Origin: Squalus acanthias
Taxonomy: Eukaryota
Assembly: GCA_030390025.1 (NCBI GenBank)
Contig: CM059432.1
Coordinates: 16,618,001 to 16,682,000, forward strand
Direction of reading: 5' to 3'
Length of the DNA stretch: 64,000 nt
Of this stretch, positions 23,191 to 62,832 are shown in pieces. Below the pieces are notes generated by a model. That model did no database searches. It saw only the letters and a program-made list of their open reading frames with translations, and was not told where the DNA came from. Every line of letters starts with the position of its first letter. Position 1 is the stretch's first letter. The translations under genes and the position numbers were made by a program.

Positions 23191-23987
23191 CTGTTCTGTA
23201 TGCTCTTTTAAATAGAAGTCAAATTGGGGTAATGTTGGGAGTGAGATTGATGATCAAAAGTGAGCCTAACTGCAAATGCTTCTAAACTTAAGAGTGAGAC
23301 ACATAAAAATAGGTGACATTTTAAACCAAACTGAAGGAGTCTAACTCCAAAATTACTGAGTTGATGGGCCTGATTTTAAACGTAGAGGCCCACGGATCCC
23401 AGGGGTGCATGCGGTTCGCAAGCGTCCCTGGGATCACATGGGCCCGGTCAACCAATCAAAAAAGGGGGATTCCTATGATGCCTATGGGGATTCCAGTTAT
23501 GTACGGAATCCCCTTAGAGTAGAAATCCCCAAATAAATAAGAATTCACACCACTTAAATAAAAATACATGATCACGTGTTCAAAATTCATCAAAAGACCC
23601 TTTAATTAAGCATTCAAAATAAAAATGTAATTTTTGGAAAAATAAATTTAAACATTTTAAAACGGACCAAAATTTACCTAAACTCATTTTAAATGTATGT
23701 GTATTTTTTAAATCATGTAAAAAAAATTATTTTAACATTTATTTTAACCCTTACGCCTGGCAAAAGCAGGCGCAAGGGTTTCGTGAGCATTCGCTGGGCA
23801 GTAGTGGGCAAATAGCCCAACTCTGCGCCAGCGAAAATGTTTTTGCAGCGGATGTGAAGGATCTATGCGGAACTTGCACAGTGCATGCAGAAACCCAGCA
23901 CTTGCGGGGTTCATTCTGAGCACTTACGCCATATGCCATCATCGGCCCTGTTAAATGCAGCAGTGAATCTGACAGTGTCTGCCATTA

Positions 23988-24125
23988 ATAATAAAAACGG
24001 AAAATGCTGGAAATGTCAACTCTGTTTCTCTCTTCACAGATGCTGCCTGACCGGCTGAGTATTTCCAGCATTTTTTGTTTTTATTTCAGATTTCCAGCAT
24101 CTGCAGCATTTTCTTTTTGTATTAA
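23988..24125. mobile_element. Penelope-derived inverted-repeat element with the centre deleted
   Basis: Same sequence family as 52057, 57009 and 57731. TSD tgtctgccatta at 23976-23987 and 24126-24137. Confidence 0.8.
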
Positions 24126-24139
24126 TGTCTGCCATTAGT

Positions 24140-29852: not shown

Positions 29853-30732
29853 TAGTGGGGTTCCGCAGGGCTCATTACTAGGTCCCTTGCTTTTGTGGTA
29901 TATATCAATGATCTAGACTGAATATAGTGGGCATGATTAAGAAGTTTGCAGATGATACTACAATAAGCTGTGCGGCTGATACTGAAGAAGGAAGCTGTAG
30001 ACTGCAGGAAGATATCAATAAATTGGTCAGGTGGGCAGAACAGTGGCAAATTGAATTCAATCCGGAGAAGTGTGAGGTAATGCATTTGGGGAGGGCTAAC
30101 AAGGCAAGGAATACACATTAAATGAGAAGTGTAGAGAAACAAAGGGAACTTGGAGTGCATGTCCACAGATCCCTGAAGGTAGCAGGCCAGGTAGATAAGG
30201 TGGTTAAGAAGGCATATGGAATGCTTGCCTTTATTAGCCGTGGCATAGAATACAAGAGCAGGGGGGGGGTTATGCTTCAACTGTATAAAACACTAGTTAG
30301 GCCTCAGCTAGACTACTGTGTGCAGTTCTGGTCACCACATTACAGGAAAGATGTGATTGCACTAGAGAGGGTACAGAGGAGATTTACAAGGATGTTGCCA
30401 GGAGTAGAGAATCTTAGCTATGAGGAAAGACTGGATAGGCTGGGTCTGTTTTCCTTGGAACAGAGGAGGCTGGGGGGAGACCTTATTGAGGTGCATAAAA
30501 TTATGAAGGGCATAGATAGAGTGGATAGAAAGGACCTATTTCCCTTAGCAGAGGGGTCAAAAACCAGGGGGCACAGATTTAAAGTAATTGGTGGAAGGTT
30601 TAGAGGGGATTTGAGGGGAAATTTCTTCACCCAGAGGGTTGTGGGGGTCTGGAACTCACTGCCTGAAAGGGTGGTAGAGGCAGGAACCCTAACCACATTT
30701 AAAAAGTACTTGGATGTGCACTTGGGATGCGT
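29853..30732 (+). mobile_element. CR1 family A 3' fragment; its 3' UTR resumes at about 34543-34665
   Basis: KKFADD, LDYCVQFWSPHYRKD, FFTQRVVGVWNSLP. Comparison with 45841-45990 shows the split point. Confidence 0.88.
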
Positions 30733-33700
30733 TTAATGAGTTGGTCACACCGCAGGTAAAGGCTGCACAGGCAGGAAGGGAATGGGTGACCGCCAGGCAG
30801 AGTAGTAGGCGCAGGCAGGTAGTGCAGGGGTCCCCTGTGGCCATCCCCCTCTCAAACAGATATACCACTTTGGATATTGTTGAGGGAGATGGCTTATCGG
30901 GGGAAGGCAGCAGCGGCCAACTTCCTGGCACCATGGGTGGTTCTGCTGCACAGGACGGAAGGAAAAAGAGCGGGAGAGCGAGAGTGATAGGGGATTCTAT
31001 TGTAAGGGGAATAGATAGGCGTTTCTGCGGCCGCAAACGAGACTCCAGGATGGTATGTTGCCTCCCTGGTGCAAGGGTCAAGGATGTCTCGGAGTGGCTG
31101 CAGGGCATTCTGGAGGGGGAGGGTGAACAGCCAGTTGTCGTGGTGCATATAGGTACCAACGATATAGGTAAAAAACGGGATGAGGTCCTAAAAGCTGAAT
31201 ATAGGGAGTTAGGAGGTAAATTAAAAATTAGGACCTCAAAGGTAGTAATCCCAGGATTGCTACCAGTGCCACGTGCTAGTCAGAGTAGAAATAGAAGGAT
31301 GTTTCAGATGAATACGTGGCTAGAGGAATGGTGCAAGGGGGAGGGATTCAAATTCCTGGGACATTGGAACCGGTTCTGGGGTAGGTGGGACCAGTACAAA
31401 CTGGACGGTTTGCACCTGGGCAGGACCGGGACCGATGTCCTAGGGGGAGTGTTTGCTTGTGCTTTTGGGGAGGGTTTAAACTAAAATGGCAGGGGGTTGG
31501 GAACCTGTGCAGGGAGACAGAGGAAAGGGAAGTAAGGATAGAAGCAAAAGACAGGAAGGAGAAAAGCAAAAGTGGCAGTCAGAGAAATCAAGGGTGTAAA
31601 TCAAACATGGCCACAGTAAATAATAATTCTAAAAGGACTAAGAGTGTTAAAAAAACAAGCCTGAAGGCTTTGTGTCTTAATGCGAGGAGCATTCGTAATA
31701 AGGTGGATGAATTAGCTGCGCAAATAGATGTAAACAGATATGATATAATTGGGATTACGGAGACATGGCTCCAGGGTGACCAAGGCTGGGAATTCAACAT
31801 CCAGGGGTATTCAATATTCAGGAAGGACAGGCAAAAATGAAAAGGAGGTGGGGTAGCATTGCTGGTTAAAGAGGAGATTAACACAATAGTAAGGAAGGAT
31901 ATTAGCTCTGATGCTGTGGAATCTGTATGGGTAGAGCTGAGAAATACCTAGGGGCAGAAAACGTTAGTGGGAGTTGTATACAGACCCCCAAAAAGTAATG
32001 CTGAGGTTGGGGATGGCATTAAACGGGAAATTAGAGACGCATGCAATAAGGGCACAGCAGTTATCATGGGTGACTTTAATCTACATATAGATTGGGCTAA
32101 CCAAATTAGTAAAAATACTGTGGAGGAGGAATTCCTAGAGTGTATACGGGATGGTTTCCTGGACCAATATCGAGGAATCAACTAGAGATCAGGCCATCTT
32201 AGACTGGGTATTATGTAATGAAAAAGGATTAATTAGCAATCTTGTTGTGCGAGGCCCCTTGGGGAGGAGCGATCATAATATGATAGAATTCTTCATTAAG
32301 ATGGAGAGTGAAGTATCTGACTCAGAGACTAGGGTCCTAAATTTAAATAAAGGGAACTATGATGGTATGAGGCACGAGTTGGCTAGGATGCATTGGGGAA
32401 CGTTACTTAAAGGGTTGACGGTGGATAGGCAATGGCAAACATTTAAAGATCGCATGGATGAACTACAGAATTTGTTCATCCCTGTTTGGCATAAAAATAA
32501 AACAAAAAAGGTGACTCAACCGTGGCTAACAAGGGAAATTAGGGATAGCATAAGATCCAAGGAGAGGACATATAAATTGGCCAGAAAAAGCAGCAAACCT
32601 GAGGATTGGGAGCAGTTTAGGATTCAGCAAAGGAGGACAAAAGGATTAATTAAGAGGGGGAAAATAGAATATGAGAGTAAGCTTTCAGGGAACATAAAAA
32701 CTGACTGTAAAAGCTTCTATAGATATATGAAGAGAAAAAGATTGGTGAAATCAAGCGTAGGTCCCTTGCAGTCAGAATCAGGGGAATTTATAATGGGGAA
32801 CAAAGAAATGGCTGACGAATTAAATACGTACTTTGGTTCTGTCTTCACAAAGGAGGACACAAATAACCTCCCAGAGATGTCGGGGAACATAGGGTCTAAT
32901 GAGAGGGTGGAACTGAATGAAATCAGTATTTGTAGGGAAATGGTGTTAGGGAAATTGACAGGATTGAAGGCCGATAAATCCCCAGAGCCTGATAATCTAC
33001 ATCCTAGGGTACTTAAGGAAGTGGCCCTAGAAATATTAGATGCATTGCTGGTCATCTTCCAAAATTCGATAGACTCTGGAACAGTACCCATGGATTGGAG
33101 GGTAGCTAATGTAACCCCACTATTTAAAAAAGGTGGTAGAGAGAAAATGGGGAATTACAGACCGGTAAGCCTGACATCGGTAGTGGGGAAAATGCTAGAG
33201 TCCATTATAAAAGATGTAATAGCAGAGCACTTGGAAAACAGTGACAGGATCGGACAAAGTCAATATAGATTTACAAAAGGTAAATCATGCTTGACTAATC
33301 TACTGGAATTTTTTGAGGATGTAACTGGTAGAATAGATAAGGGAGAACCAGTGGATGTGGTGTATTTGGACTTTCAGAAGGCTTTCGATAAGGTCCCGCA
33401 TAAGAGATTCGCGTGCAAAGTTAAAGCACATGGGATTGGGGGTAGGGTACTGACTTGGATAGAGAACTGGTTGGCAGACAGGAAGCAAAGAGTTGGAATA
33501 AACGGGTCTTTTTCCGAGTGGCAGGCAGTGACTAGTGGGGTACCGCAAGGATCGGTGCTAGGACCCCAGCTATTCACAATATATATTAATGATCTAGACG
33601 AGGGAACTAGATGTAATATCTCCAAGTTTGCAGACGACACAAAGCTGGGTGGGCGTGTCTGCTGTGAGGAGGATGCAGAGAAACTCCAGTATGATTTGGA

Positions 33701-34542
33701 CAGGTTGGGTGATTGGGCAGATGCAGTATAATGTGGATAAATGCGAGATTATCCACTTTGGTGGCAAAAACAGGAAGGCAGATTATCTGAACGGCAATAG
33801 ATTGGGAAAAGGGGAAGTGCAACGAGACCTAGGTGTCCTTGTGCACCAGTCGCTGATGTAAGCATGCAGGTGCAGCAGGCGGTTAAGAAGGCAAATGGTA
33901 TGTTGGCCTTCATAGCGAGAGGATTCGAGTACAGGAGCAAGGATGTCTTGCTGCAGTTGTACAGGGCCTTGGTGAGACCACACCTTGAGTATTGGGTGCA
34001 GTTTTGGTCGCCTTATCTGAGGAAGGATGTTCTTGCCATGGAGGGAGTGCAGCGAAGATTCACCAGACTGATACCTGGGATGGCAGGAATGACGTATGAA
34101 GAGAGATTGGGTCGATTAGGCTTATATTCGCTAGAGTTTAGAAGAATGAGAGGGGATCTCATTGAAACTTATAAAATTCTAACAGGACTAGACAGACTAG
34201 ATGCAGGAAGGATGTTTCCGATGGCGGGGGAGTCCAGAACCAGGGGTCACAGTCTAAGGATAAGGGGTAAGCCATTTAGGACTGAGATGAGGAGGAATTT
34301 CTTCACCCAGAGAGAGTGGTGAACCTGTGGAATTCTCTACCACAGAAGGCAGTTGAGGCCAATTCATTAAATATATTCAAGAAGGAGATAGATATATTTC
34401 TTAAGGCTAAAGGGATCAAGGGATATGGGGAGAAAGCAGGGACAGGGTACTGAATTTGGATGATCAGCCATGATCTCATTAAATGGCGGAACAGGCTCGA
34501 GGGGCCGAATGGCCTACTCCTGCTCCTATCTTCTATGTTTCT
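30733..34542 (+). mobile_element. Nearly full-length CR1 LINE: SGNH/GDSL esterase-type ORF1 plus APE-RT ORF2 with a few stops and frameshifts
   Basis: ORF1 blocks GDSIVRG, HIGTND, DGLHL. ORF2 LNARSIRNK, GITETWL, GDFN, SDH and a 526-aa RT segment with YRPVSLTS and PQGSVLGP...FADD. Ends in a ttctatgtttct tail. Confidence 0.95.
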
Positions 34543-49093: not shown

Positions 49094-49198
49094 GCCAGTT
49101 CTGACAAAGAGTCATCGACCCGAAATGTTAACTCTGTTTCTCTTTCCACGATGCTGCCTGCCCTGCTGAGTGTTTCCAGCATTTTTTGTTGTTATTTC
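49094..49198 (+). mobile_element. Single arm of the Penelope-derived element with a degenerate hammerhead motif
   Basis: ccagttctgacaaagagtcatcgacccgaaatgttaactc...gctgagtgtttccagcattt. Confidence 0.7.
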
Positions 49199-51900: not shown

Positions 51901-52056
51901 TCAGGGTGTTGCAACTAACTTGTTGCATTATTATTTACCCTGTTCAACCACTTAAAAATTGGAACAAGTTTTTCCAATTTTCAATGATTAAATCATTCTT
52001 ATTCATCAAACAAACAATACTCATCAGCAGCACCAAAATAGATTCATTGATTACTT

Positions 52057-52302
52057 CAACAAAAGCAAAATACTGCGGATGCTGGAAATCTGAAATAAAC
52101 ACAGAAAATGCTGGAAATACTCAGCAGGTCAGGCAGTATCTGTGGACAGAGAAACAGTTAACGTTTCAGGTCGATGAACCTTTTGTCAGAACTGGCAGTT
52201 CGGCAGCTCTGACGAAAGGTCATCGGCCTGAAACGTTAACTGTTTCTCTGTCCACAGATACTGCCTGACTTGCTGAGTATTTCCAGCATTTTCTGTTTTT
52301 AT
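52057..52302. mobile_element. Palindromic Penelope-derived element carrying hammerhead motifs
   Basis: About 110-bp inverted arms. TSD ttcattgattactt at 52043-52056 and 52303-52316. Confidence 0.85.
52204..52242 (+). ncRNA. Minimal type-I hammerhead ribozyme motif
   Basis: cagct-CTGACGA-aaggtcatcggcct-GAAAC-GTT-aactg: conserved core, stem II hairpin, stem I flanks (one mismatch) and palindromic stem III AACGTT. Confidence 0.65.
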
Positions 52303-52463
52303 TTCATTGATTACTTGTCATACTTGCTGTGCACCTTGTGAGCAATGTAGCTAACGCACTCGCCCACATAACAACTGCAACTACAGTTCATGTAAACTTC
52401 ATGTAAACTAATTAATTGGCTGTGAAGCTATTAGGGAAAAACTGAAGATGTATAATAAACAAT

Positions 52464-52936
52464 GGCCTGTAATTTGTGGTCAGCTGCAAAACGCTGGCGA
52501 TCGCCGCTGACCTCGAAGAAAACTGCCCACAGAGATCTTGCGATCTCTGTGGCAAAAACTTGAGCTTTCTCAACGTGAAATTGATTGTAGCGTTGTCAAT
52601 AGGGTATCCCCAGCGCGATGCAGCAGGGACGTCATCAAGCTGTCTAAGCAGCCAATCACATTGAAGAATTCTCACAGACAGCAAACCAGGAAATAAAAAG
52701 CACTGATTATCTGCACTTTTTAAAAATGTTAGAGAGCGAAATAAAGATTGGGACATACACATAGGGTTAAAGTAGAAGCTGAAATATCATGAACATACTT
52801 TAAAAAAACCAACATTTAAAAAAAAATCTAATAATTTTTTTGCCTGTGCTAAATCCTGAAATTATGGTCAGTTTCAGAGGAGTAATGACAGCGAACGCCG
52901 ACAGTTCGTCCTCATTACCACCGCAAAATCCGGGCC
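52464..52936. mobile_element. Harbinger-like MITE, same family as 10349-11046
   Basis: TIRs ggcctgtaatttgtgg / ccgcaaaatccgggcc, AAT on both flanks, shared internal agatctcgcgat and cagccaatcaca. Confidence 0.8.
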
Positions 52937-53453
52937 AATATAATTGCATGTTCTCTTCTTTCCTAATACTAGTTATGCACTCTGACTATGCTGCGTAACA
53001 AACTGCAAATTGGCAGCTGCAGAGTAAATGACATCAGAGTGAGGCAGTGTCAGCAAGTATGACCTTCATTATAGTGCTGAAATGTGGCAGAATCATACTC
53101 ATCGGTGCAACGAGAGATCGTGGCACGTCAATTGGGGTGTGCAGGATAATTTACAAGGAGTTAATGTTTTTCTGGAATTCAACACAAGTAGCTAAAGCAG
53201 ATAATTTGGAAAGTATCTCTTGTATCACAGATATACATAATTAAGCTGTACTAAAATAAACTTCAACCCAGATGTATGCTTCTGCAAAACAAGTCTTCAA
53301 TGTATTCCGCAATTTCAGATTTTAATGAGTGTACAGATGTTTACGATCAGATGCCTGTACTTTCTCATTAAAATCAGAAATGCAGCTGCCAGATATCACG
53401 TGTAAATATCAGTTAAAAAGCTAGAAAGAACTCTAGAGGACACAAAATCTTAC

Positions 53454-53571
53454 CTTTCTGGGACCTAATAATGAATGACTGTATGACTCCATTCACTAGG
53501 CGACAATAACCATCTATCAAGTCTGCCATGTTCTCTGCAATGTTCAGCGATGGAGTTGTTATAGTCAAAGG
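53454..53571 (-). CDS. PTK2: PTK2/FAK coding exon (118 nt, phase 0-1), end of FERM domain: PLTITTPSLNIAENMADLIDGYCRLVNGVIQSFIIRSQK
   Basis: Contains the FAK signature AENMADLIDGYCRLVNG. Acceptor ttattttcag, donor AAG|gtaaga. In frame with the previous exon. Confidence 0.97.
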
Positions 53572-54409
53572 CTGAAAATAAGCACAAAGTAGTGTTATTG
53601 TCATAACTTCTCACAGCTGCCAGTTCCCGTCAGGACACTCGGTCACATTCTGCAGATGTCAAGGGTCAAACCCCCAACACATCATCACGAACAGTCAATA
53701 GGGGTGAGACTTGTCCAACTGCTGTCTCTGTTTCTTGTGCACAAACCACTGACAACTCAGTGTCAGTGATTTGACAAACAAGAAACAGATATACTGTGCA
53801 AAAACAAATAGTGTCGGAGAAAGCAATCCAGTAGGGAAGGTAATTTTGAAGATTAACCACAAACCATCCACTTCTGTTTATACAAAAATATACAATATAC
53901 AATGCAAAATCAACAATTGGGATCTGTGAACAAAGTCAATTACGCTTTCTCGCAAATAAATTGTCCTGCAGATTATTAGCTCAGCCAGCTCTGAAGCACT
54001 GATGAGTTGTGCAGGCTTCTGCACACTGGTGGACTATAAGAGTAGGATAGTTAGAAAAATTCTCCTGGAATACAAATTGAAAACTTGAAGTGTGAGTAAA
54101 AAATTGCTAGCAATATCTTCAATTAACACTTTTCAATGAGACAAAATTAAACGCTAAAATAACTGGAAGGATTTTATTTAAAAAAAAGCATCGAATACAT
54201 ATGCTTTCTCACTTATTTACAATGTACTCACACAGCCATCTTCCTTTATTTAAAAAAAATGAACAGTTGCTGATAACTTAAGTGGTCAGGTACAATTATT
54301 ATGCTTCAAAATGACAAAATGGATTTCAAATTTACTATGATCAACATATTGGCTGGCATATTTGTTAAGTAAAAAAAAAAATGAACGAGGTTTACAATTC
54401 GAGACTTTC

Positions 54410-54947
54410 GGAGGTAGAAATCGGTCCTTGTTGCGCCGGTTTTCCAGTAGAAAAGCAGGGACAAAAAATTACCAATTTCACAGGGCTATGCCCCAAGGAC
54501 ACCTGAAATACGCCAAACACCTCAAGATGATTTTCAAGCGTCTCGGGGACCGGCTTAAACAGGGCCCCTTGTATGTGCTAATGAGGGGCTTAACACCTGT
54601 TTGAGGACCCCTCAGCAAAATTCGTCAGCACAGAGCGAAAAAGCGGGCACTGGGCCTGCTCCACTCCAGTGTTGATGGGATTGCTGTGGCCGAACAAGCG
54701 GCCGCAAACCAAAAGTATTTTCTTTTTACTTACCTTCCTGTGGAGCCGGGAGGACTGGCTCCAGCCCACCCTCCTACCAGGACTTACTTACAGACGTTGC
54801 CGGTGAGACAAGTGATCCAAATTGGATCGGGCCACACGGGCAAGCTGCCCAATTTTGGGCCAGCCTCAGGGCTCCCGGTTTGGGCCTGTGCTTTAAGTGC
54901 ACCGCCAGTTACGCGCCCAAAAACGGACCATAAAGAATTTCAACCCT
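54410..54947. mobile_element. Probable degenerate MITE with G-rich TIR (ggaggtagaaat / atttcaaccct)
   Basis: GC-rich island with imperfect terminal inverted repeats in AT-rich intron sequence. Confidence 0.45.
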
Positions 54948-55939
54948 TATATTTTGGAGATTTGATAAAACGCTGATCACTATTATACATAAAAATAAGA
55001 ATGTAAGAACATTCAAGTTACTGGACTTGTATGACCCAGCACAATACATGCTAACTAACAAAACTCGGAAAAGCTGACCAATAACTTCCAGAAAGCAAAC
55101 ACAGCTTCCATAAAGTTGACAACTCAAAAAATAAAGTACAGCTGAAAAACAGCCCTGAATAAAGGTCTGGGGCCGTGACCATTGCTTCATGACTACAATT
55201 TGTAAAACTTTTTGTTTTAATTACATTGCATTTCAGGATATGTATTGGTATTTTGAGATCCCATTCTGTAATTTCATTTGATGTTTTGTGGAAACTGAAA
55301 CCTGTGTGTGGAGCCTCAGTCACTAACAGGAGTTTCAAAGCTCCTAAAGACAGACAAAAGGTTTTTGACGCAGCTACATCTCCATTGAACAGTAAGAACT
55401 GCATTCATAGGTCTTCATTATTTAAATTACTTTAAGTGCCTTGGGATGTTTTCCTATGTTAAAGGTGCTATATAAATGCAAGTTTTGTTATTGTTTCCCT
55501 TCCCCAGTTTTTGGTGTCAGTCCATTCTTGGTGAGATCTTTAAAGACCAGACTGCAATCACTAATGGCTCTAATATGCTCTTCTTCATCGGTTTACTTCT
55601 CAGATTTGATTTGAGAATGCACACAAATGAAACACATACAGTCTAGCTGATCTTAGACTACAGATCCCTCCATTTACTCGATGTTCAAACTTGCTCAAGA
55701 ATAACTTTTCATTACATCAGGAGCTTTGAGCCAGCCTTATATACAGGTAGGGTTTCAATAACAATATAATGCATAGTTAAATGTAAATTGTTTTCAAGAC
55801 ACCTGTAACAGTTGCAGAGATGGTTTGATGTACTGTTGTGAAATTATACCCCAATGAAAGCAATTTTTTCAGAAAGAGAAAACACAAATAAAGAGTACAG
55901 GATAGCTGGCATTCTACACAATTTGAGGCTGGAACTTAC

Positions 55940-56047
55940 CTCCGATGCTCCAGCTATTTTTAACTGCAAAGTTCCTTTCCTGTCTTTATCATCACTGTTT
56001 GAATACTGAATGGTCTGTACCTGGTTGAAATTAGCCAGGTGAGTTGG
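55940..56047 (-). CDS. PTK2: PTK2/FAK coding exon (108 nt, phase 0-0), FERM F3 lobe: PTHLANFNQVQTIQYSNSDDKDRKGTLQLKIAGASE
   Basis: Translation closely matches vertebrate FAK (human, recalled: PTHLADFTQVQTIQYSNSEDKDRKGMLQLKIAGAPE). Minus-strand acceptor ttcttgttttacag and donor GAG|gtaagt. Confidence 0.97.
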
Positions 56048-57008
56048 CTGTAAAACAAGAAAAGTGCTCTTCAATTAGTTATAACAACTATAAAAGGCCA
56101 TGGTGTGTCCTTCCACCCCACCAAAAAAAACAGATGTCAAAGCTTTAATTATTATACTGTCTGAGATAGAATTTTCCACATAGCAAAAAAGATTTATCTA
56201 AATAATTTTTTTTTAAACTTGGCATATAAAATGCAGGCAGGTCTCAAGTGTAATCACAAGGCATATGCTGGTACATATATAATTGAAGATTGCTGCCCAC
56301 TGACTCCGTCCCAATGTCCTTGAGGGTCCATGGTTCCAGATGTAGATATTTCCCAGATGTGAATAAAAATAAATAGATTGAATGCCATAATGTACTTCAA
56401 CCTACATACCCTGATGACCAGTTATAGATCGGCACTGACAAATGCCTGGGAGGCCATCTATCTGCCCTGCTGGATGGGAAATGGCACTTATCTATTATTA
56501 CATACATACATACATAATGTGTGCGTGTATGATTATACACACAATCTCGATTATAAGTATCAACAGGACTAAATGAGAGTTACCATGAAAATGAGAAAAT
56601 CTGGTAAAGCTGCAGTGACTAAAAAGGTACTGAAACTGCTACATCACTTGTATTAAGCTAGATATATGACTTTGAAACAAGCTGACATTTGAAAATATGT
56701 AGAGTTGGCAATATAAAGAATGAAAAGGTAAAATCCAGGGTTAACCTCAGGGAAATACGAGAAGTGTGAAGTGGAAAAAATTGATGTTTAAAAATGGGGC
56801 TTTTGATTTCTGGGTTCCTCCTTGCTAATGAATGAACAAACTTGTATTTGTAAAGCGCCTTTTATGACTTCAGGATATTCCAAAGTGCTTCACAGCCGAT
56901 TAAATACTTTTGTAGCGTTGTCATGTAGGTAAATGCAGCAACTAATTTGCACACAGCAAGTCCCCATAGACAGCAATGAGATAATGACTAGATCATTTGT
57001 TTTAGTGA

Positions 57009-57240
57009 AATAAAAACAGAAAATGCTGGAGATACTCAGCAGGTCAGGCAGCATCTGTGAAGAGAGAAACAGAGTTAATGTTTCAGGTCGATGACCTTTC
57101 GTCAGAACTGGTCGAAAAGTCATCGACCTGAAGCGTTAACTCTGTTTCTCTCTTCACAGATGCTGCCTGACCTGCTGAGTATCTCCAGCATTTTCTGTTT
57201 TTATTTCAGATTTCCAGCATCTGCAGTATTTTCTTTTTGT
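57009..57240. mobile_element. Palindromic Penelope-derived element
   Basis: Inverted arms. TSD atttgtttt(a/c)gtga at 56995-57008 and 57241-57254. Inserted into an older SINE/L2-tail fragment (about 56840-57300). Confidence 0.85.
57073..57110 (-). ncRNA. Minimal type-I hammerhead motif on the PTK2 sense strand, with a stem III variant
   Basis: Minus strand reads cagtt-CTGACGA-aaggtcatcgacct-GAAAC-ATT-aact. The G to A change breaks the ACGT palindrome. Confidence 0.55.
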
Positions 57241-57730
57241 ATTTGTTTTCGTGATGTTGTTTGAGCATTCGGTCTTGGCCAGGACACCGGGAGAACTTCC
57301 CTTCTCTACACACTAAAAAAAAATGGACGTTCAGTCTAAAACTTTATTTAAACTCGTGGAGCTATACATTCAGAAATGAAACAGGTAACACTTTTTAAAA
57401 ACCATAATTAGTCCATCTCACTCCAGATGGAAGTCTTGTTCAAAAAACAGATGAAAAAGTAAACCATAAAGCATGCTTGAAAATACAATGCAGTAAAATT
57501 TCTTTAAGGAAATCACAGTTAGAGCATCATGCTGAAGGACCCAATGTATTTTTTCTATTTTAGGGAATTGCCAAATTCTGTTCAAGAAAAACATACTGAT
57601 TAATATGTACTGAGATGCAATTTACCACAAATACATTTCTCAGAGAATTCAGTGAACTTTCAATCAAATTGGTGTTTCAATCAGCTACTATGACACAAAA
57701 CCAATCGTGAAACCAGACATATCCCTGTCA

Positions 57731-57962
57731 CAAGCAAAATACTGCGGATGCTGGAAATCCAAAATAAAAACAGAAAATGCTGGAAATACTCAGCAAGTCA
57801 GGCAGCATCTGTGGAGAGAGAAACAGAGTTAACGTTTCAGGTCGATGACCCTTCGTTCATTGACCGTTCTGACGAAGGGTCATCGACCTGAAACGTTAAC
57901 TTTTGTTTCTCTCTTCACAGATGTTGCCTGACCTGCTGAGTATTCCCAGCATTTTCTGTTTT
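57731..57962. mobile_element. Palindromic Penelope-derived element
   Basis: Inverted arms. TSD tatccctgtca at 57720-57730 and 57963-57973. Confidence 0.85.
57866..57900 (+). ncRNA. Minimal type-I hammerhead ribozyme motif
   Basis: gtt-CTGACGA-agggtcatcgacct-GAAAC-GTT-aac. Stem I GTT/AAC, stem II GGTC/GACC. Confidence 0.65.
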
Positions 57963-58854
57963 TATCCCTGTCAAAACTGTCTGCACGTTCCAAAAATGGC
58001 TATGACCTTGAAAGTGTGCATTGTTAGCTTTAGAAGCTGGTGATAGGATGACGTGCTGAGGCACTCTCCTTGCACTGAGACCAACGTCAGGGGCACTCTA
58101 TTTATCGCAGAGAGAGCCAGTCACCCTATTATCAGCAGTTGGGGTCAAAGGACAGGGGCCTTCCCTGAGCGGTAACCAGCCAAGCAGTTTCCCAGAGTGG
58201 AAACCAGGACTTAAAAAATGCAAGAGCATTCTGATGAGAAGCCAGGTACGAATAGAATTCATTTCATAAAAAGATGCAATGCTGTACTCCTGCAATCTAC
58301 ACTGCAATTATAATTGACCAGTCTTTAACTAAAGCAGCAGAGTCTGGGGAAATTCAATGCGCTTTATGCTTAAGGAATCAAAACATCTCTCCCCACAGAA
58401 ATTCCTTTAAGTTGACTGGGCAGTATTATAAGCAATATTTTTATAGCCATAATTAATATGCTCCACAAGATGGCGCTCCAAACAAAGTATCACAGTTGTG
58501 TGGTTATGGTTGGAATTGCATGTTAAGAACAAAAAATAGCCATTAAAATGCACAGTACTGGCTTGTGATCTTTGAACGACTCTATATTGCAGTAAATAAG
58601 TTTACAGTAAACATTTTGTACTTAGAAGAATGTAAAGAGCTCATATCAGTCAGGTCTTCCACACAAATTAACTGCAGCAAATGTCAATGCACAGAGAAGT
58701 AATGGGCTCTTCCTAAATGAGAACAAAATGTTATTAAATGAGACTAGCATTTTGTTTATTCAATCAGATGCACTCAGAATGGACCATTGTCCTGACTTTC
58801 ATAAAAATGAAACTTCTCTGTATTTCAATGTTCAGGTGATACAAATATCACCTG

Positions 58855-59560: not shown

Positions 59561-62290
59561 TTAATTATTATTTTTTTTTAAATACCCAAGTATAGAAATC
59601 AGAGGTAGCCAACAAAACATTTTTTAAAGATAAAACTGAAATTTTTTTTTTTTTTTTTGCATGAACCAAGCAAGTTATTTGTTTTGAAGTAAACCTTTCT
59701 GCCTCCCTTAGATAACTAAAGGATTAGGTTCTTAGCCGTAGTCTTGCATGCTATCAGAGAATGGAAGACCACAACAATGAAATAGAATGCTTGATTTTTT
59801 TTAAAATTCGTTTATGGGATGTGGGCGTCGCTGGCAAGGCCAGCATTTATTGCCTATCCCTAATTGCCCTTGACAAGGTGGTGGTGAGCCGCTTTCTTGA
59901 ACCTCTGCAGTCCGTGTGGCGAAGGTACTCCCACAGTGCTCTTAGGGAGGGAGTTCCAGGATTTTGATCCAGCGACGATGAAGGATCGGCGATATATTTC
60001 CAAGTCAAGATGGTGTGTGACTTGGAGGGGAACTTGGAGGTGGTGGTATTCCCATGCGCCTGCTGCCCTTGTCCTTCTAGGTGAAAGAGGTCGCAGGTTT
60101 GGGAGGTGCTGTTGAAGAAGCCTTGGCAAGTTGCTGCAGTGCATCTTTTAAGATGGTACACACTGCAGCCACGGTACATGGTGGTGGAGGGAGTGAATGT
60201 TTAAGGTGGTGGATGGGGTGCCAATCAAGCAGGCTGCTTTGTCCTGGATGGTGTCGAGCTTCGTGAGTGTTGTTGGAGCTGCACTCATCCAGGCAAGTGA
60301 AGAGTATTCCATCACACTCCTTACTTGTGCCTTGTAGATGGTGGAAAGGCTTTGGGGAGTCAGGAGGTGAGACACTGGCTGCAGAATACCTAGCCTCTGA
60401 CCTGCTCTTGCTTCCATAGTATTTATGTGGCTGGTCCAGTTAAGTTTCTGGTCAATGGTGACCCCCAGGATGTTGATGGTGGGGGATTCGCTGATGGTAA
60501 TGCAGTTGATTGTCAAGGGGCGGTAGTTAGACTCTCGCTTCTTGGAGATAGTCATTGCCTGGCACTTGTGTGGCGTGAATGTTACCTGCTACTTATCAGC
60601 CCAAACCTGAATGTCATCCAGGTCTTGTTGCATGCGGGCACGGACTGCTTCATTATCTGAGCTGTGAATGGCGCTGAACACTGTGCAGTCATCAGCGAAC
60701 ATCCCCATTTCTGACCTTATGTCGGAGGGAAGGTCATTGATGAAGCAGCTGAAGATGGTTGGGCCTAGGACACTGCCCTGAGGAACGCCTGCAGCGATGA
60801 TCTGGGGCTGTGATGATTGACCTTCAACCACCACAACCATCTTCCTTTGTGCTTGGTATGACTCCAGTGGAGTTTTCTCCCCGATTCCCATTGACTTCAG
60901 TTTTACTAGGTCTCCTCGATGCCACACCCAGTGAAATGCTGCCTTGATGTCAAGGGTAGTCATTTTCACCTCACCTCTAGAATTCAGCTCCTTTGTCCAT
61001 GTTTGGACCAAGGCTGTAATGAGGACAGGAGCCGAGTGGTCTTGGCAGAACCCAAACTGGGCATCAGTGAGCAGGTTATTGGTGAGTAAGTGCCACTTGA
61101 TAGCACTGTTGATGACACCTTCCATCACTTTGCTGATGATTGAGAGTAGACTGATGGGGCAGTAATTGGCCGGATTGGATTTGTCCTGCTTTTTGTGGAC
61201 AGGACATACCCGCTCAGTTTTCCACATTGTTGGATAGATGCCAGTGTTGTAGCTGTACTGGAACAGCTTGGCCAGAGGCGCGGCTAGTTCTGGAGCACAA
61301 GTCTGCAGCACGACAGCCGGGATGTTGTCGGGGCCCATAGCCTTTGCTGTATCCAGTGCGCTCAGCCGTTCATCGAAACCACGTGGAGTGAATTGAATTG
61401 GTTGAAGACTGGCTTCTGTGCTGTGGGGACCTCAGGAGTAGGCCGATATGGATCATCCATTCGGCACTTCTGGCTGAATATGGTTGCAAACGCTTCAGCC
61501 TTGTCTTATGCACTCACGTGCTGGGCTCCACCATCATTGAGGATGGGGATATTCATGGAGCCTCCTCCTCCCGTTAGTTGTTTAATGGTCCACCACCATT
61601 CACGAGTGGAAGTGGCAGGACTGCAGTGCTTTGATCTGATCCGTTGATTGTGGGATCGCTTAGCCCTGTCTATTTCATGCTGCCTCCACTTTTTAGCATG
61701 CATGTTGTCCTGTGTTGCAGCTTCCCCAGGTTGGCACCTCATTTTTAGGTATGCCTGGTGCTGCTCCAGGCATGCTCTTCTACACTCCTTATTGAACCAG
61801 GGTTGGTCCCCTGGCTTGATGGTAATGGTAGAGTAAGGGATATGCCGGGCCATGAGGTTACAGATTGGGGTGGAATACAATTCTGCTGCTGATGGCCCAC
61901 AGCGCCTCATGGATGCCCAGTTTTGAGCTGCTAGATCTGTTCTGAATCTATCCCATTTAGCAGCGTGGAAGTGCCACACAACATGATGGAGAGTATCCTC
62001 AGTGTGAAGACGGGACTTCGTCTCCACCATGACTGTGCGGTGGTCACTGCTACCAATACTGTCATGGACAGATGCATCTGCGACAGGTAGATTGGCGAGG
62101 ACGAGGTCAAGTAGGTTTTTCCCTCATGTTGGTTCTCTCATCACCTGTCGCAGGCCCAAGACTGGCAGCTATGTCCTTCAGGACTCGGCCAGCTGTGGTG
62201 CTACCGAGCCACTTTTGGTGATGGACTTTGAAGTCCCCCACCCAGAGTACATTTTGTGCTCTATCGACTCTCAGTGCTTCTTCCAAGTGT

Positions 62291-62832
62291 GAGAAGTCGC
62301 ACAACACCAGGTTATAGTCCAACAGTTTTATTTGAAATCACAAGCTTTCGGAGCGCTGCTCCTTCGTCAGGTGAAGTGAAGAGATGCATATAGGCACAGC
62401 ATATATAGTCAGAGAACACTGCCAGATGATTACAGTTAATCTTTCTAACTGCCCTTTATCACACCTCGGCAGAGAGATAATCACGGCAATCAAAGGTGTG
62501 GATGGTGTTCAAACAGGTCAGTCAGGAAAACATTACATCAATGACAATGAGGTGGGGTCACAAGGGGTCAAATGTGGCAGATGCTGGGGTCTGTTTGGAA
62601 AACAAAAAACTTTTTTTGCTGGAAATCACAGCAGGTCCGGCCGCATCTGTGTAGAGAGAACAAGCCAACGACGACTCGAGTCTGGATGACTCTACGTCAG
62701 GTGGGGTTACATGCAGCGTGACATGAACCCAAGATCCCAGTTGAGGCCGTCCTCATGGGTGCGGAACTTGGCTATCAGTTTCTGCTCGACAATTTTGCGT
62801 TGTTGTGTGTCTCGAAGGCCGCCTTGGAGAGT
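62291..62832 (-). mobile_element. Penelope-like element 3' fragment: GIY-YIG endonuclease C-terminus plus terminal repeat
   Basis: Minus strand encodes LQGGLRDTQQRKIVEQKLIAKFRTHEDGLNWDLGFM. TSD cttccaagtgt at 62280-62290 and 62833-62843. Contains a second pLTR-like piece at about 62578-62700. Confidence 0.85.
62339..62373 (-). ncRNA. Minimal type-I hammerhead ribozyme motif with intact core, on the PTK2 sense strand
   Basis: Minus strand reads (t)cac-CTGACGA-a-ggagc-agc-gctcc-GAAAG-CTT-gtg(a). Stem I TCAC/GTGA, stem II GGAGC/GCTCC, palindromic stem III AAGCTT. Confidence 0.75.

Follow-up and report, generated by a model that had tools for sequence, protein, structure and literature searches.

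What are the short palindromic insertions in this 64-kb stretch of shark DNA (the window), each carrying opposed hammerhead motifs between copies of its own target-site duplication (TSD): a ribozyme-bearing family in their own right, or by-products of an autonomous element?

Palindromic insertions in the window and their parent element

Three large palindromes were located, at 52058-52306, 57006-57240 and 57731-57965. In palindrome 1 a minus-strand arm that bears a tail (52058..52195; element positions -138..-1, counted from the tail end) and a plus-strand, tail-less arm (52204..52306; -137..-33) meet at a junction (52196..52203) whose centre occurs nowhere else in the genome with <=1 mismatch, and the unit lies between 14-bp TSD copies at 52043..52056 and 52303..52316, the right one overlapping the arm end by 4 nt. 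Its plus-strand arm holds a minimal type-I hammerhead motif (52205..52241) with an intact core (52209), one stem I mismatch and a cut predicted after 52237 from the hammerhead consensus (NUH), and the minus-strand core (52189) has G8 changed to A. Palindrome 2 joins a tail-less minus-strand arm (57006..57111; -138..-33), with an intact core at 57105 and a CpG change that breaks the stem III palindrome, to a tail-bearing plus-strand arm (57115..57240; about -124..-1) that lost CUGANGA at the junction; its 14-bp TSD copies (56995..57008 and 57241..57254) differ by 1 mismatch. Palindrome 3 consists of a tail-bearing minus-strand arm with CUGANGA truncated at the junction (57731..57856; about -128..-1) and a tail-less plus-strand arm with an intact core at 57869 (57866..57965; -135..-37), between 11-bp TSD copies (57720..57730 and 57963..57973). 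The centres of palindromes 2 and 3 are also unique genome-wide.

A shorter two-armed copy, flanked by 12-bp TSDs (23976..23987 and 24126..24137), pairs a tail-less minus-strand stub of 25 nt that represents the outer end only (23990..24014) with a tail-bearing plus-strand arm without the hammerhead core (24015..24120; -106..-1), after which the element's sequence continues for 5 nt. Finally, a single tail-less arm on the plus strand (49095..49198; -138..-34) has a decayed hammerhead with G8 changed, and a TSD sought around it was not found. The first-pass annotation had reported three hairpins of ~230-245 bp, a centre-poor copy and a single arm, and all five were where it had placed them; furthermore, TSDs of 11-14 bp were present at all four two-armed copies, supporting its claim that each arose in a single integration event. 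It had also placed a central deletion in the copy at 23988: the position and the two arms stood, but its sequence fits two arms that were each short independently of the other (-56..-35 and -106..-1) better than a full palindrome that lost its centre.

Each arm almost certainly represents the 3'-most 100 or 135 nt of an autonomous, 3.2-kb Penelope-like element (PLE) that encodes reverse transcriptase (RT), a Cys linker and a GIY-YIG endonuclease in a Neptune-like arrangement. Matches to a single-arm query ran on upstream into a GIY-YIG ORF, where the domain next to the arm scored 22.6 bits, equal to the Pfam cutoff, and in a full-length copy the arm sequence continues through the tail into the RT/GIY-YIG ORF. 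At locus L162, one open stretch of 549 aa matches RVT_1 (E 4.7e-6) and then GIY-YIG (E 0.005), both below Pfam cutoffs; it has 1,639 homologues with RT/GIY-YIG domains, the best named ones coming from sharks and rays (63-70%). Locus L279 is a partial tandem (pLTR+tail-ORF-pLTR) whose pseudo-LTRs (pLTRs) are 97.5% identical; there the tail runs on into the 5' region of the ORF, which starts about 40 nt past the tail. The arm is the pLTR end, in which the hammerhead is followed by two fixed end points 35 nt apart (-1 and about -35). Many copies have C-X4-C-X2-C ahead of GIY-YIG, and a CX2-5CxxC linker between RT and endonuclease is described as a Neptune feature that is shared by Nematis (PMC8557442); this motif is what suggests that the parent is Neptune-like. 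Arms number roughly 2x10^5 in the 3.7-Gb genome, and 7/25 coding copies have an adjoining inverted arm of 58-890 nt. Thus, the proposed origin in a PLE was supported, since the arms match the 3' terminus of an autonomous element with RT and GIY-YIG, and what had been offered as the alternative reading, truncation and inversion products of autonomous elements, holds, with inverted arms of all lengths on coding copies too.

Ends, tails and centres of the insertions

Among 88 consecutively listed insertions, 62 were single-armed, 12 were two-armed and 190-270 bp long, and 16 reached the ORF; inverted arms ranged from 25 to about 900 nt. Single arms were tailed in 33 cases and tail-less in 29. By comparison, 20 of the 22 resolvable two-armed inserts had the 35-nt tail on one arm while the other stopped before it (p=6e-5), and the same one-tail rule was seen in 20/21 inserts of a second Penelope family. 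The two-armed locus L224 has two tails and no TSD. A TSD of >=10 bp (mode 14-15) flanked 51 of 61 close head-to-head pairs, compared to 1/61 with a shifted flank. Many TSDs start near ATT-like bases, and since the element itself reads ATT after both end points, target preference and microhomology are inseparable here.

Inner ends were concentrated at one site: 34 of the 78 arms at risk stopped in -139..-130, at 0.044 per nt versus 0.002-0.006 in most other bins. This pile-up coincides with the hammerhead's 5' boundary, and a TATA-like box lies about 31 nt upstream; 84/96 arms that run on have a TATA-like hexamer 29-34 nt upstream of the site. The family A box is non-canonical (TTAAAA); in the second family, TATATAT and an initiator-like motif of the TCACTTC type show the same spacing, and the inner-end hot spot recurs. 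Ends did not gather at the putative cleavage site, with 2/88 near the cut in family A and 3/63 just past it in family B.

We also searched for palindrome centres, which yielded at least 1,495 loci with two exact opposed anchors within 34 nt. In the first 50, which were parsed, there were 19 different centre lengths, and the commonest junction, at CAG/CTG microhomology, was present in only 9-11 and occurred with the tail on either side (L003 versus L275). A genome-wide comparison of lengths and breakpoints had been suggested as the test for a distinct family; in the insertions and loci parsed here, outer ends were fixed and inner ends clustered but centres differed, so that there was no fixed unit with a common internal junction as expected of master copies. 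The near-constant 230-245 bp arises because the outer ends are fixed and the inner ends lie at the hot spot, both being shared with single-arm copies.

The hammerhead motif inside and outside the palindromes

A minimal type-I descriptor matched 29 times in 1.064 Mb but not once in the reversed control, in agreement with the original identification of the motif. An Rfam scan of the window returned no hammerhead at E<=1, which is uninformative because the minimal motif is without helix III. Pairing per position was 0.87-0.98 in 127 family-A arms (helices I/II and the palindromic 15.2-16.2) and 0.94-1.0 in 36 family-B arms. Pairs were counted by core anchoring; a MAFFT alignment of 16 hammerheads from the two families was one column off in the 3' half. 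The compensatory conservation that had been anticipated was present between families A and B, where 8/10 pairs differ with pairing kept, and helix I within family B has C-G (22) swapped for U-A (8); within family A it amounted to one A-U/G-U site.

In the window the arms had been described as intact or partly decayed. CUGANGA was retained in only 3/6 arms of the large palindromes, one per element (52209+, 57105- and 57869+), and each of these three has a mismatch in stem I or stem III. Two intact hammerheads are therefore present in none of the window palindromes, and the strict descriptor matched none of them. Stem II is predicted not to form in the palindromes (P<1e-13), and in this folding model the palindrome hairpin would block the hammerhead and leave the ribozyme inert inside it. 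Moreover, because the opposed hammerheads lie on opposite strands, a transcript contains one ribozyme and its complement and a cis dimer cannot form.

The motif resembles the minimal hammerheads described for metazoan PLEs, with a 4-bp helix I, an unpaired base after A9, a G10.1-C11.1-type stem II, a palindromic 15.2-16.2 and no loop 3; unlike the examples given there, stem II of the shark element, as read from its sequence, has 5 bp (PMC4209133). The same source describes truncated PLEs with dual hammerhead motifs 100-700 bp apart on opposite strands. Non-LTR retrozymes are likewise described as short, non-coding, hammerhead-bearing and derived from PLE pLTRs, but as head-to-tail tandems with same-strand hammerheads and circular RNAs (PMC7229834; bioRxiv 10.64898/2026.07.22.740005), whereas the shark units are inverted and one-off, with one sense motif, and so one ribozyme, per strand.

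Origin of the second arm

Very probably, the autonomous Neptune-like element gave rise to the palindromes as its shortest two-armed insertions, likely assembled anew at each insertion. The element's protein, probably a dimer, would nick both target strands about 14 nt apart. The template would be an RNA starting at the pLTR promoter, immediately 5' of the hammerhead, and from each nick a cDNA would be primed at one or the other of its two internal start sites. The two cDNAs would run off the 5' end of this RNA after about 100 and 135 nt, and their 3' ends would be joined head to head, with microhomology or a few added bases at the junction. If one cDNA were lost, a single arm would remain, tailed or tail-less about equally often, and priming at the downstream pLTR of a longer RNA would give longer, randomly truncated arms; the hammerhead would be inherited from the parent and stay uncleaved in the copied RNA. 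Even with unique centres in the window, some other palindromes may have seeded small secondary families.

The details of two-primer run-off are advanced with less assurance, as somewhat favoured. For a Poseidon-type PLE of Anolis carolinensis, PAc, two RT start sites are reported to bound the tail, both strands to be nicked and extended, the protein to be a predicted dimer and uncleaved RNA to serve as template (PMC11167929). The tail-less arm extended >=5 nt further 5' than the tailed arm in 12/28 pairs, which excludes copying of one arm from the other and implies two syntheses. Against two primers, inserts of an inner inverted piece without the outer end (L192, L213, L251, L037 and L051) fit fold-back copying better. 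Furthermore, the anole protein is reported not to differ in start site between strands in vitro (PMC11167929), so that the one-tail rule is so far without a biochemical explanation.

Fold-back copying, which we regard as unlikely, starts from the same parent: the first cDNA would prime itself after folding back (or an antisense template would be used), and the endonuclease would resolve the hairpin 35 nt before its end, so that a single tail remains. It accounts for the one-tail rule directly, and its two parts have been proposed before, fold-back for a rotifer Penelope (PMC3846280) and tail formation by hairpin resolution (PMC8557442). The arms of a pair matched at 162/187 subfamily sites (0.87 versus 0.64 in shuffled pairs), a concordance possibly inflated by the 28/61 pairs that came from a palindrome query, and shared 10 rare variants versus 1.5 expected; moreover, the commonest centre is the one that a CAG-AA-CTG snap-back would give. 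However, two cDNAs copied from a single source locus would agree just as well, each arm had sequence missing from the other in 12/28 pairs (hundreds of bases in L220 and L262), and stubs with the outer end only (23990 in the window, L240 and L265) are at odds with copying that starts at the centre.

It is improbable that the inner-end hot spot marks an RT stop or a 3' splice site instead of a transcription start. The site does resemble a splice acceptor, with a U-run (polypyrimidine) and CAG, the family A box is non-canonical, and an intron of the Drosophila virilis Penelope is reported to end at hammerhead helix I (PMC4209133); yet 24 single arms starting at the hot spot share no upstream exon, their flanks differing and most abutting the TSD, and the second family has the same hot spot with no AG acceptor and TATATAT about 30 nt upstream. 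A canonical intron joint was absent among the joints listed, in contigs from four runs of guessed kind; these contigs carry no information on starts or ends and speak neither for nor against.

The distinct non-autonomous, retrozyme-like family that had been proposed, a 230-245 nt hairpin RNA from master copies moved whole by Penelope proteins, is very improbable and for the window copies already largely refuted: the many loci with opposed anchors, two-armed lengths clustering near 200-250 bp, the recurring centre and a TSD at each copy would suit it, but the arms belong to an autonomous element, the tail-less arm shares its end point with single arms, arm lengths form a continuum with coding copies, centre lengths vary and window centres are unique, the recurring centre spans different subfamilies and both tail orientations, within-family compensatory change is confined to one site, and the units are inverted, not tandem, with a hairpin predicted to block the ribozyme.

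Returning to assembly from two cDNAs, we put at about even the chance that all stubs are a fossil record of Penelope integration, with two cDNAs per event from nicks ~14 nt apart made by a dimer, and short arms as strong-stop-like run-off of a capped 5' leader starting at the first base of the uncleaved hammerhead. If so, the tail, the inverted pLTR and the palindromes would share one mechanism, and two unrelated families would have the ribozyme at the extreme 5' end of their mRNA. PAc likewise has a minimal hammerhead upstream of two tail-bounding RT start sites, but there the hammerhead contains the beginning of the ORF, and an AC-rich loop within the ORF provides the start sites (PMC11167929), whereas the shark element has U-rich sites, an ORF about 40 nt after the tail and a Neptune-like Cys linker.

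Earlier publications describe inverted pLTRs, one-sided tails and opposed minimal hammerheads, and the palindromes are ordinary transposon debris; our literature searches returned no paper on these shark palindromes, and Repbase/Dfam may hold the family. Short TSD-flanked palindromes in shark genomes can be mistaken for MITEs or retrozymes. PMC11167929 and PMC8557442 still treat the origin of the inverted ends and one-sided tail of PLEs as an open question, and the one-tail counts, the TATA-spaced inner ends and the lack of ends at the ribozyme cut provide predictions testable in the existing in vitro system. Insertions of endonuclease-bearing PLEs of the Pen2a_Av type, as described in PMC3846280 and PMC8557442, share with those reported here 5'-truncated copies, an inverted truncated copy at the 5' end, head-to-head palindromes, a 30-40 nt tail on one end only, a TSD around the unit, a TATA plus initiator-like motif in the pLTR and partial tandems. 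The Pen2a_Av passages of these two sources give no counts such as the one-tail figures (20/22; 20/21) or the clustering of inner ends. Unlike the insertions they describe, those in this shark are mostly tiny, with both arms <140 nt and inner ends at the 5' edge of the hammerhead.

The palindromes and their parent element

The three large palindromes (52058-52306, 57006-57240 and 57731-57965), the short two-armed copy (23990-24120) and the single arm (49095-49198) were all recovered where the first-pass annotation had placed them, and each of the four two-armed copies indeed carried its own target-site duplication (TSD), of 14, 14, 11 and 12 bp; a search of the flanks of the single arm found no TSD. 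Within each large palindrome the arms were ~95-97% identical over 94-104 nt, and in every case one arm was ~35 nt longer than its partner at the outer end. Four rare variants, one of them a 2-nt deletion, are common to both arms of the palindrome at 52058-52306; these arms thus either derive from a single variant source RNA or became alike through homogenisation once inserted. Three insertions of differing subfamily or structure, one at 56995-57254 and two from elsewhere in the genome (L026 and L044), lie at the identical position of the same host repeat, which suggests a preferred target site.

Querying the genome with a whole palindrome returned 30 loci, which are look-alikes by construction. 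With a single arm as query, most matches extended upstream into a pyrimidine-rich stretch that they have in common, beyond which lies a GIY-YIG ORF. In 25 longer copies, RT, a C-X4-C-X2-C linker and GIY-YIG shared a single reading frame, which is disrupted in most of them; the linker motif suggests that the parent element is Neptune-like, and its nearest named protein relatives were from sharks and rays, which makes a shark the most likely host. One locus, L279, held a whole unit of ~3.2 kb with a partial copy ahead of it, in the order pseudo-LTR, hammerhead, tail (~35 nt), ORF ~40 nt on and, at the far end, a tail-less pseudo-LTR. Endonuclease-bearing Penelope-like elements are canonically organised in this way, as described in passages of PMC3846280 and PMC8557442. 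One 50-mer from the arm has 8,742 exact matches in the 3.7-Gb genome, and 100 stretches of 10 kb contained 59 arms, 8 of them flanking the window, which extrapolates roughly to ~2x10^5 arms genome-wide. Four long copies (L227, L214, L091 and L201) had inverted internal segments upstream of their direct part, like LINE-type 5' inversions.

Arm number, end points and palindrome length

The palindromes had been proposed to form a distinct non-autonomous family. We sampled the first 90 loci around 100 listed 50-mer matches, minus 2 that were second arms of insertions already included (n=88). Single-armed insertions made up 62/88 and two-armed ones 26/88; 12/88 were two-armed with a length of 190-270 bp, and 16/88 reached the ORF. 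Furthermore, 7 of the 25 coding copies were adjoined by an inverted arm measuring 58-890 nt. A gap-pattern search of the genome yielded at least 1,495 loci at which two exact anchors face in opposite directions. Among the first 50 of these, 19 different centre lengths occurred, and the most frequent centre (9 exact matches, 11 when one change is allowed) lies on CAG/CTG microhomology and was seen with the tail on either side. Each of the three palindromes in the window has a centre that is unique genome-wide at one mismatch. Thus, the predominance of single arms, the graded arm lengths, the variety of centres and the unique window centres argue against a distinct family, on the terms that the first-pass annotation had itself set for its refutation, although small secondary palindrome families may exist elsewhere in the genome.

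On the outside, arms terminated either at the tail end or ~35 nt short of it, and single arms behaved likewise (33 tailed, 29 tail-less). One tailed and one tail-less arm were combined in 20 of the 22 resolvable two-armed inserts (p=6e-5), the 22 leaving out 4 whose tail state was unresolved; of the other two, L224 is without a TSD, and L275 is a separate palindrome, nested, which taken by itself does have one tailed and one tail-less arm. At the inner end, 34 of 78 arms at risk stopped within -139..-130 (counted from the tail end), the 5' edge of hammerhead helix I, at a rate ~ten times that of most other bins. No pile-up of insert ends was found at the predicted cut at -103, with only 2/88 near that position. 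A TTAAAA-type hexamer lay 29-34 nt upstream of the inner-end site in 84 of the 96 arms that run on, these being copies of one sequence and not independent. The hot spot itself reads CCAGTTC, a fit to the initiator consensus YYANWYY. The near-constant palindrome length therefore results from outer ends fixed at two points and inner ends piled up at -139..-130.

A candidate integration mechanism

Passages of PMC11167929 describe anole PAc, a predicted dimer, as nicking and extending both target strands and starting reverse transcription at two internal sites bounding the tail, with uncleaved RNA used. By analogy, we infer that the shark palindromes may arise in a similar way: two target nicks ~14 nt apart would each prime one cDNA, one per RT start site, on a template RNA beginning at the putative pseudo-LTR promoter, and the two cDNAs would run off after ~100 and ~135 nt and be joined head to head. 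In 12 of 28 pairs it was the arm lacking the tail that extended beyond its partner on the 5' side, indicating that neither arm was copied from the other and supporting two syntheses. Arm agreement at subfamily sites (0.87 vs 0.64 for shuffled pairs) also counts for the two-cDNA model, as it is expected if both cDNAs come from one source. Fold-back copying, which would make the second arm from the first, suits a handful of inserts having the inner inverted piece alone; these count against the two-cDNA model, as does the report, in the same passages of PMC11167929, that the PAc start site showed no strand difference in vitro.

Earlier publications (parts of PMC4209133, PMC3846280 and PMC8557442) already describe pseudo-LTRs in inverted orientation, tails on one side, minimal hammerheads on opposite strands and a pseudo-LTR TATA/initiator. 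A search of published papers, as distinct from the repeat collections Repbase and Dfam, and of the text rather than the supplementary figures in the case of PMC11167929, turned up no account of these shark palindromes or of the present counts.

Hammerhead motifs and a second Penelope-like family

The hammerhead motif proposed for the arms was borne out, with 29 descriptor matches vs 0 in the control. As for opposed hammerheads, the motif does occur on either strand, but none of the window palindromes has two intact cores. The motif matches the minimal hammerheads in the relevant part of PMC4209133, which also mentions opposite-strand pairs from truncated elements. A transcript across a palindrome comprises one hammerhead motif and its complement, with predicted folding energies of -162 to -180 kcal/mol and a stem II probability <1e-13 (five strands scored). 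Since a cis dimer needs two same-strand hammerheads, the inverted layout cannot supply it. The fold is further supported by a comparison between the arm-forming element (family A) and a second Penelope-like family, in which 8 of 10 hammerhead pairs differ with pairing kept. Within family A the sole common exchange, in stem II, puts G-U in place of A-U, and these copies thus show no sign of being under selection.

Across the DNA sampled, the second family had two 3' end points ~42 nt apart, with one long end per head-to-head pair in 20/21, and its 5' ends clustered at the hammerhead, the same hot spot as in family A (20 of 63 BLAST ends, 4 of the 20 coming from a subfamily that differs in its upstream sequence). 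Its end in the window (62290-62460, minus strand), sequence-unrelated to family A, has an intact minimal hammerhead (core 62370), TATATAT ~30 nt upstream with spacing as in family A and, further up, a GIY-YIG C-terminus to ~62830. This copy encloses a relative of the family-A arm that is older and diverged and whose hammerhead has decayed (~62560-62700, minus strand). At 30693-34322 (plus strand), a GDSL-esterase ORF and, behind it, an RT ORF mark a broken LINE, presumably of CR1/L2 type from its domain layout, and many further RT fragments fill the window.
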